A stretch of DNA of 30,062 bases from Patescibacteria group bacterium (GTDB taxonomy: Bacteria > Patescibacteriota > JACMRA01). Shown here piece after piece: positions 18,004-19,064 of this stretch. Location: NCBI GenBank assembly GCA_029935375.1, contig JAOZKL010000001.1:3290-33351 (forward strand), written 5' to 3'. A program made the translations under genes and the position numbers. The notes below the pieces were generated by a model. The model did no database searches. It was given only the letters and a program-made list of their open reading frames with translations, and was not told where the DNA came from. Numbering within the stretch: the stretch's first letter is position 1; each line of letters opens with the position of its first letter.

Positions 18004-18999
18004 TTATTCTAAATTGAATTCTATCCTTTTTTTGCCGCTACCAACTGATTTTTGTTTTATTATTTTAAATTTCCCAAAATTCTTTGCATTATCTGCATGT
18101 GGCCCTCCACAAAATTCTTTACTATATACAGTAGATTGATTTATATCAGTTATTGTATAGACTGTTACGATATCTCCATATTTTTCTCCAAATAGTCCAA
18201 TTGCTCCAGATTTCTTTGCGTCTTCTCTATTTAAATTTTCTTTTTTTACTATAAAGTCTGAATTTATAATTGCCTGAATTTTATTTTCAAGACGTTCTAT
18301 TTCTTCATTGTCTAATTTTCTGTCAAATGTAAAATCAAATCTAGCTTTTTGCTCCGTTATAGCAGATCCTGTTTGTTTAACAGTTTCTCCAAGCATATTC
18401 CTTAGTTCTTGATGCAGTAAATGTGTGAGCGTATGCAGTTTTTTTGTTTTATCTGTATGTTCTCCAAGCCCAGATTTGAAAACTTCTTTTGATATTGTTT
18501 GTGACTTTTTTTGATGTTGCTCTACTAGTTCTTCCAGCCTACTCATATTCATTTTTACAACATCTTGATTTTCTATTATACCTTCAGAAGCCTCTAGTGG
18601 AACTCCATGGGTTTGATATAGATCCCATGTCTTTTCAGCAAGAAAATCTGTAGTAATATTACTATTCTTTTGAAATACTTTCCCCCATTCTTTTTCCCCA
18701 ACTTTTAGAGCTCTTAAATACTTTTGCGCCTCTGTATTCAGTGATTGTATTGCGATATCTCTTGTAGTGCTCAGGTCGTAAACCCCTTTATATATACTTA
18801 TTGTTTCGTCAACAAGGTTTTCAAAATATTCTGAATTGGTGATGTCTATATTTAACACTATACTAGAAGATAAGGCTCTACGAATTAGCCTTCTCAATAC
18901 ATACCCACGTTGTTTTCCAGAGGGGGTTATGCCATCTGAAATTATTATACAAGCTGTCCTGATATGGTCAGCTATTATATAAGAATGATTTTTTGTCAT
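18004..18999 (-). CDS. alaS: Alanyl-tRNA synthetase C-terminal half (tRNA-recognition helices plus editing domain); no aminoacylation domain
   Basis: IIADHIRT..SDGITPS..RGYVLRRLIRRA, LYQTHGVP, editing HTLTHLLH (HxxxH), ARFDF, EFCGGPH (CxxxH), GSGKKRIE. Class II motifs 1-3 are absent. Confidence 0.92.
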   Translation of the reverse strand: MTKNHSYIIADHIRTACIIISDGITPSGKQRGYVLRRLIRRALSSSIVLNIDITNSEYFENLVDETISIYKGVYDLSTTRDIAIQSLNTEAQKYLRALKVGEKEWGKVFQKNSNITTDFLAEKTWDLYQTHGVPLEASEGIIENQDVVKMNMSRLEELVEQHQKKSQTISKEVFKSGLGEHTDKTKKLHTLTHLLHQELRNMLGETVKQTGSAITEQKARFDFTFDRKLDNEEIERLENKIQAIINSDFIVKKENLNREDAKKSGAIGLFGEKYGDIVTVYTITDINQSTVYSKEFCGGPHADNAKNFGKFKIIKQKSVGSGKKRIEFNLE

Positions 19000-19040
19000 A
19001 AAGATATCAAGCTCTAGAAAAATTGTTTTGTCAAGCTATA

Positions 19041-19064
19041 CAAAAACACCCTAAAAATAGGGTG
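19041..19064 (-). terminator. Intrinsic terminator after rpmE
   Basis: Perfect stem CACCCTA-TTTT-TAGGGTG followed by TTTTT on the minus strand, 24 nt past the rpmE stop. Confidence 0.85.

Follow-up and report, generated by a model that had tools for sequence, protein, structure and literature searches.

The window analysed here, a 30,062-nucleotide stretch of a Patescibacteria genome bin (G000), carries on its minus strand an open reading frame, hereafter alaS-C, that corresponds to only part of an alanyl-tRNA synthetase (AlaRS). The features of this gene and its surroundings are as follows:

17222..17995, minus strand: holB-like gene (DNA polymerase III delta' family), beginning 8 nt after the alaS-C stop
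18004..18999, minus strand: alaS-C, 331 aa, tRNA-recognition region plus editing domain of AlaRS
18007..18447, minus strand: editing domain, about residues 185-331 (Pfam tRNA_SAD; aligns with A. fulgidus AlaRS 598-734)
18097-18111, minus strand: CxxxH editing ligands C297 and H301 (CGGPH)
18421-18435, minus strand: HxxxH editing ligands H189 and H193 (HTLTH)
18421..18993, minus strand: helical tRNA-recognition region, residues 3-193 (Pfam tRNA-synt_2c profile 269-453)
19029..19034, minus strand: TTGACA hexamer, a possible -35 box
19036..19038, minus strand: in-frame TAG that closes the frame on its 5' side, 12 codons before the ATG
19047..19064, minus strand: terminator-like hairpin (7 pairs, 4 of them G-C, then TTTTTGT), just downstream of rpmE
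19089..19436, minus strand: rpmE (ribosomal protein L31, 115 aa; Pfam PF01197, E 2.2e-18), the upstream neighbour and not part of alaS

As an ORF, alaS-C is intact: it starts with MTKNHSYIIADHIRT, stops at a TAA (18004-18006) and lies in an open frame of 343 codons. Its product matches Pfam tRNA-synt_2c at profile positions 269-453 of 552 (residues 3-193, E 1.1e-32), in agreement with an earlier sequence-only reading of this DNA that had the ORF begin at the helical tRNA-recognition region, and tRNA_SAD at residues 278-327 (E 9.3e-11). Comparison with solved AlaRS structures aligned it with residues 337-496 and 598-734 of the A. fulgidus enzyme (E 4e-20) and 281-436 of that of E. coli. The helical tRNA-recognition region typical of AlaRS is thus present, with the IADHIR, GYVLRRLIRR and LYQTHGVP motifs all inside it, and so is the AlaRS editing domain with its HxxxH and CxxxH zinc ligands. 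The C-Ala domain is absent, the ORF ending 4 residues past tRNA_SAD. Also absent is the class II catalytic core with its alanine-binding residues, since the Pfam match begins at profile position 269; the earlier reading had correctly reported the aminoacylation domain as missing but put its size at ~250 aa, whereas it amounts to about 300 aa. An N-terminus of the form 'M.KN..YIIADH' is conserved across homologous C-halves, which supports the assigned start codon.

The TAG, the TTGACA, the rpmE terminator and rpmE itself were all found upstream of the gene, just as that reading had described. The promoter scan paired the TTGACA at 19029-19034 with no -10 box 16-18 nt away and so gives no support to a canonical sigma-70 promoter there; a separate alaS-C transcript is plausible only. 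The holB-like gene is probably co-transcribed with alaS-C. The locus was found in none of the RNA runs searched. The neighbouring genes vary, with rpmE in G000 and fusA or rplK in relatives, and these differences indicate that there is no conserved operon. The L31 protein encoded at 19089-19436 carries a ~50-aa Lys/Asp-rich C-terminal extension past its Pfam domain (residues 3-64 of 115).

We searched the whole of G000 (0.91 Mb in 121 contigs) with PF01411 and obtained exactly two matches, namely alaS-C (profile 268-453) and a gene on contig C94 (profile 1-261):

G000:C94:3407-4324 (= L001:1486-2403): catalytic-core gene (N-half), 305 aa, PF01411 profile 1-261

This gene ends at a TAA amid a 10.5-kb contig, and its product aligns with E. 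coli AlaRS 4-266. The catalytic core that the sequence-only reading had advised seeking in the genome was thus uncovered. The claim that AlaRS is present only as a C-terminal half holds for the window but not for the genome, and the proposal of a split AlaRS in a bacterium, with the catalytic chain encoded at another place, is borne out. Indeed, a full-length alaS, which that reading had set against a split enzyme, was not found in G000 (85% complete) or in the one-contig relative G017. The core feature of the AlaRS family, absent from alaS-C and present in the C94 gene, is thus provided only by both genes together.

Aligned end to end with 13 one-piece Patescibacteria AlaRS, the two products meet within a short, variable and gap-rich linker at about E. 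coli 267-280, between the helix '...TD.L.PL..KI' and 'R.IADHIR'. In this alignment no residues are lost at the cut, none are added and there is no intein-sized extra, and the combined length of 305 + 331 = 636 aa matches that of the one-piece relatives. A split intein with protein splicing was rejected on these grounds, the total equalling the one-piece length with no extra sequence at the cut. An alternative genetic code behind the split was rejected as well: the stop codon of the N-half is TAA, a TAG blocks the frame ahead of the C-half, and TGA is absent from both genes; RF2 is encoded in the class. No separate AlaX was found in G000, where the sole other tRNA_SAD match was a 629-aa open frame on contig C102 that is probably ThrRS. 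The tRNA-Ala(UGC) of the bin has the G3:U70 pair and A73.

A separate observation on the bin concerns TGA codons elsewhere. By a crude call that includes some antisense artefacts, 59 of about 820 ORFs in G000 are open only with TGA read as sense, among them C75:4370-5857 (minus), C75:3389-4330 (minus), C94:4412-5014 (plus), C94:1504-2064 (minus), C31:16896-17603 (plus), C60:2681-3823 (plus) and C35:10956-11738 (minus). Most extreme is a GT2 glycosyltransferase ORF of 496 codons, which has TGA in frame 24 times but neither TAA nor TAG, and whose Pfam score was best with TGA as Gly (77.9 bits, versus 61.9 as X and 56.5 as Trp). Across such ORFs, GGN plus TGA equals the GGN frequency in 600 TGA-free ORFs. 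Yet RF2 is present in G000 (SPF motif) and in almost the whole class, a tRNA(UCA) was not found, large core genes are free of TGA, and homologues in G012 and G007 (41% identity) showed no in-frame TGA. These ORFs may reflect a nascent code-25-like reassignment or DNA from code-25 neighbours.

Residue conservation was judged on 58 N-halves and 58 C-halves. Invariant in the former are R69, N240, D268, T269, G270, G272 and R275, which, with the alignment, we take to be the alanine-site residues R69, N212, D235 and G237 of E. coli AlaRS plus motif 3. The C-halves share D11, H12, K29, Y33, R36, R40, Y128, Q129 and G132 without exception, and the four editing ligands H189, H193, C297 and H301, reported earlier as intact in this gene, are conserved in 58/58. 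Editing is almost certainly one job of the alaS-C subunit. In the textbook AlaRS, an Asn (N303 in E. coli, 'PSN') contacts U70 and an Asp (D400, 'LYD') contacts G3. This pair for G3:U70 is not kept in alaS-C, where the aligned residues are G28 and Q129; throughout the split family, the N303 position holds Gly, Pro or Ala and the D400 position an invariant Gln. One-piece relatives of the phylum, most of which keep the PSN Asn, can likewise have Gln, Glu, Ser or Ala in place of the Asp, so that the split family stands out only in having lost the Asn. Recognition of tRNA-Ala may be different in detail.

The class comprises 27 species genomes and forms a single order in the collection used. The same cut, for which the earlier reading had advised inspecting relatives, is present in 25 of the 26 other genomes of the class, with the N piece and the remainder at separate places, and extends to G025, the only genome of the second family of the class. 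In G017, a single contig of 1.27 Mb, only the pieces are present: the N piece, at 1.109 Mb, is 564 kb away from the remainder, at 0.54 Mb. In the tree, every one-piece sequence falls outside a single, long-stemmed clade of N-halves (SH-aLRT 100). The exception, G005, encodes a 643-aa one-piece AlaRS (L015, G005:C27) on a 3.5-kb contig; this sequence is placed among other families of the phylum (SH-aLRT 95), outside the split clade, and both the short contig and the grouping indicate that it is probably foreign, through replacement by transfer, or a mis-binned contig. In an even sample of 251 phylum genomes, AlaRS was encoded by one open frame in about 230 others, every other lineage with a good match showing a single frame. 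Metagenome protein searches further retrieved C-halves about 330 aa long in >100 clusters, at 46-59% identity, and N-halves of about 300-310 aa in >120 clusters, at 61-74% identity, and a locus search with the single alaS-C protein returned 4 loci, all distant or partial.

Two Pfam matches had suggested that family f40 is also split, a candidate that was rejected upon finding one frame of 776-800 aa with an inserted domain. In these one-piece enzymes (L064:802-3132 in G074:C1; L026, L027 and L029), a His_Phos_1 (histidine-phosphatase) domain sits in the catalytic core at profile position 214; the family includes a complete 1.1-Mb genome. Insertions were also seen within the class, the catalytic piece of G011 (L063:680-3604, G011:C72) being a 974-aa ORF with guanylate kinase, Ham1-like and alpha/beta-hydrolase domains inserted in frame between AlaRS profile positions 162 and 146-259.

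A second cut is present in 10 genomes of the class, in which the C part consists of two ORFs, giving three AlaRS pieces in all. The middle piece is helical, 110-118 aa long and ends in '...G.KEW.KIL.', and the last one, of roughly 220 aa, starts just before 'FLA.KTWDLYQTHGVP'; the cut precedes the LYD/LYQ motif and maps to roughly E. coli 381-390. Middle and last pieces are 44 nt apart in G018, separated by two unrelated genes in G017 and G022, and on different contigs in others. In G017 and G022, the gap from gene fission is colonised by other genes. These intervening genes (L016:2676-4582 in G017; L019:1985-3778 in G022) encode a membrane protein of ~260-280 aa and a ~340-aa protein for which no family was detected. 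Because the region of the second cut is continuous in G000, the enzyme of the window is of the two-piece form, and since the sister family is two-piece, the three-piece state is derived. On a poorly resolved tree, parsimony gave 4 changes for the origins of the second cut, of which well-supported branches force only 1.

Structure prediction of the N-half together with the C-half yielded a complex score of 0.87, while the highest score among 3 controls was 0.01. The calibration mark was reached by 58/80 solved complexes and 2/110 mismatched pairs, counts that apply only roughly to the AlaRS pair, for which its own family alignments were used. The predicted interface involves N-half residues 285-305 (the last helix) and 5-84 and C-half residues 2-74, the site where both domains pack in one-piece AlaRS. 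The score may partly be model memory of one-piece AlaRS structures, and what the modelled complex shows is a retained intramolecular interface, that is, likeness rather than binding. We nevertheless consider it highly probable that alaS-C and the C94 product constitute a non-covalent two-subunit AlaRS; the halves would associate physically, as in the predicted complex, and would perform both charging and editing.

In the mechanism we propose, alaS-C would act as a beta-like subunit and the 305-aa class II core encoded on C94 as a separately translated alpha-like subunit. The catalytic subunit would bind the first helices of alaS-C through its C-terminal helix and N-terminal face, restoring between two chains the interface that one-piece AlaRS forms within a single chain. 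The N piece would then activate alanine, and the C piece would recognise the acceptor stem, position tRNA-Ala (G3:U70) for transfer and clear Ser- or Gly-tRNA-Ala through its HxxxH/CxxxH site. The C piece might also edit in trans, which is compatible with a two-subunit enzyme.

That assembly produced the apparent half-gene, by a chimeric join or a contig break, is scarcely credible. G000 is a fragmented metagenome bin, and some of its 'splits' are not biological: rpoB seems split merely because contig C42 ends inside the gene, domain 6 lying in two pieces at G000:C42:16433-17293 and C6:7295-7603. Both ends of alaS-C, however, lie inside a 38-kb contig, and Logan contigs from each of two hydrothermal-vent samples (runs X1 and X3) show zero differences over 18621-19169, a stretch that runs across the ATG, the TAG and the hairpin into the end of rpmE. 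The chimeric join near 19000 that the sequence-only reading had allowed for is thus absent, and 25 genomes that were assembled independently and differ in their neighbour genes are cut at the same point. A one-piece alaS hidden in unassembled DNA, with the half-genes as decaying or neofunctionalised leftovers, is very improbable too, even though the bin stands at 85% completeness in 121 contigs and the relative G005 has a one-piece 643-aa AlaRS. The one-contig genome G017 has pieces only, the catalytic and editing residues are invariant across >100 clusters in both halves, and the G005 copy, outside the split clade on its 3.5-kb contig, is probably foreign or mis-binned. As for the Logan contigs themselves, those of X1, X3 and X4 all break at GATC sites (window positions 18621 and 19169, also 18161 and 18194), past which the sequence is unrelated and differs between records; these breaks look like the product of proximity-ligation (Hi-C-type) libraries, not real rearrangements.

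It is also conceivable, if unlikely, that no stable enzyme forms, and that the catalytic piece charges alone or with another partner while alaS-C, bringing its own helical domain for tRNA binding, serves as a free trans-editing factor, like an extended AlaX. The complete, conserved editing site of alaS-C and the lack of any other AlaX-type protein in G000 would fit such a role, as would the weak, G3:U70-independent activity of N. equitans AlaRS-alpha alone (PMC11392972). Against it, the N-half ends at about E. coli 266 without any tRNA-recognition region, and the longer E. coli fragment 1-368 (368N) cannot charge tRNA (PMC11392972), so that the N piece is unlikely to work as a synthetase by itself. 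The predicted interface moreover appears large and specific, and both genes co-occur in 25/26 relatives. The pure trans-editing factor that the earlier reading had kept as its alternative is not needed alongside the two-subunit enzyme. A broader, doubtful possibility is that AlaRS of this class is modular, made of 2 or 3 freely exchanging subunits: the tRNA-recognition/editing subunit would also work as a standalone trans-editing or tRNA-Ala-handling factor, at a dosage independent of the catalytic subunit, and the fissions (from one piece to two and then three) at domain borders would be the reverse of the proposed stepwise assembly of AlaRS.

According to a 2023 paper, AlaRS keeps its prototype structure throughout biology except in N. 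equitans (PMC10036535). Our full-text literature search, in an incomplete library, turned up split AlaRS in Nanoarchaeota only and none reported from bacteria. Like the nanoarchaeal enzyme (NEQ547 alpha plus NEQ211 beta), the AlaRS described here is encoded by two unlinked genes with no one-piece gene, and its catalytic piece is set apart from the editing-bearing one, far apart on the chromosome in G017 (564 kb of 1.27 Mb); the hosts are likewise ultra-small and probably symbiotic, with reduced genomes. The nanoarchaeal enzyme requires both subunits for G3:U70-specific charging. The N. equitans cut, by contrast, lies within the tRNA-recognition region, near E. coli residue 368 (PMC11392972), whereas that of the Patescibacteria, at ~E. 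coli 267-280, coincides with the border between catalytic core and helical domain and therefore leaves an alpha piece without any tRNA-recognition part. The split sequences are also bacterial-type and devoid of C-Ala, unlike the nanoarchaeal protein. It is the second cut of some relatives (~381-390) that resembles the nanoarchaeal one, being upstream of the LYD/LYQ motif, and it yields three pieces. The principle is thus the same as in the nanoarchaeal enzyme, and what differs is the bacterial-type protein, the position of the cut and the extra three-piece form.

With AlaX (AlaXp), alaS-C shares a stand-alone AlaRS-type HxxxH/CxxxH site and tRNA_SAD domain, but it has in addition a helical tRNA-recognition region of roughly 190 aa that AlaX lacks, and it supplies part of the synthetase itself. 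AlaX coexists with a full AlaRS, whereas none was found beside alaS-C in G000 or G017. The one-piece Patescibacteria AlaRS (about 580-650 aa, no C-Ala) have the same domain order and total length and end right after tRNA_SAD, differing from the split family in being a single polypeptide. The bacterial GlyRS alpha2beta2 (glyQ/glyS) combines a ~300-aa catalytic alpha subunit, related to the AlaRS core, with a tRNA-binding beta subunit (10.1101/2023.05.29.542759; PMC8464048), and in this architecture it is the nearest bacterial analogue of a two-gene AlaRS. It differs, however, in Pfam family, amino acid, tRNA and beta-subunit domains, and the GlyRS arrangement is old and widespread, while the split AlaRS is a recent fission of a one-piece gene.

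The NCBI pipeline names the proteins of both pieces 'alanine--tRNA ligase-related protein', so that the lineage could be counted as having no AlaRS in surveys of completeness or metabolism. Collectively, these data indicate that a whole bacterial class departs from the one-piece AlaRS, at a domain border different from that of the known case, and that some of its members do so twice. Such natural two- and three-piece enzymes bear on which modules suffice for alanine activation, G3:U70 recognition and editing, on how non-covalent interfaces replace linkers, and on why episymbionts with reduced genomes tolerate, and perhaps favour, the fission of essential genes.
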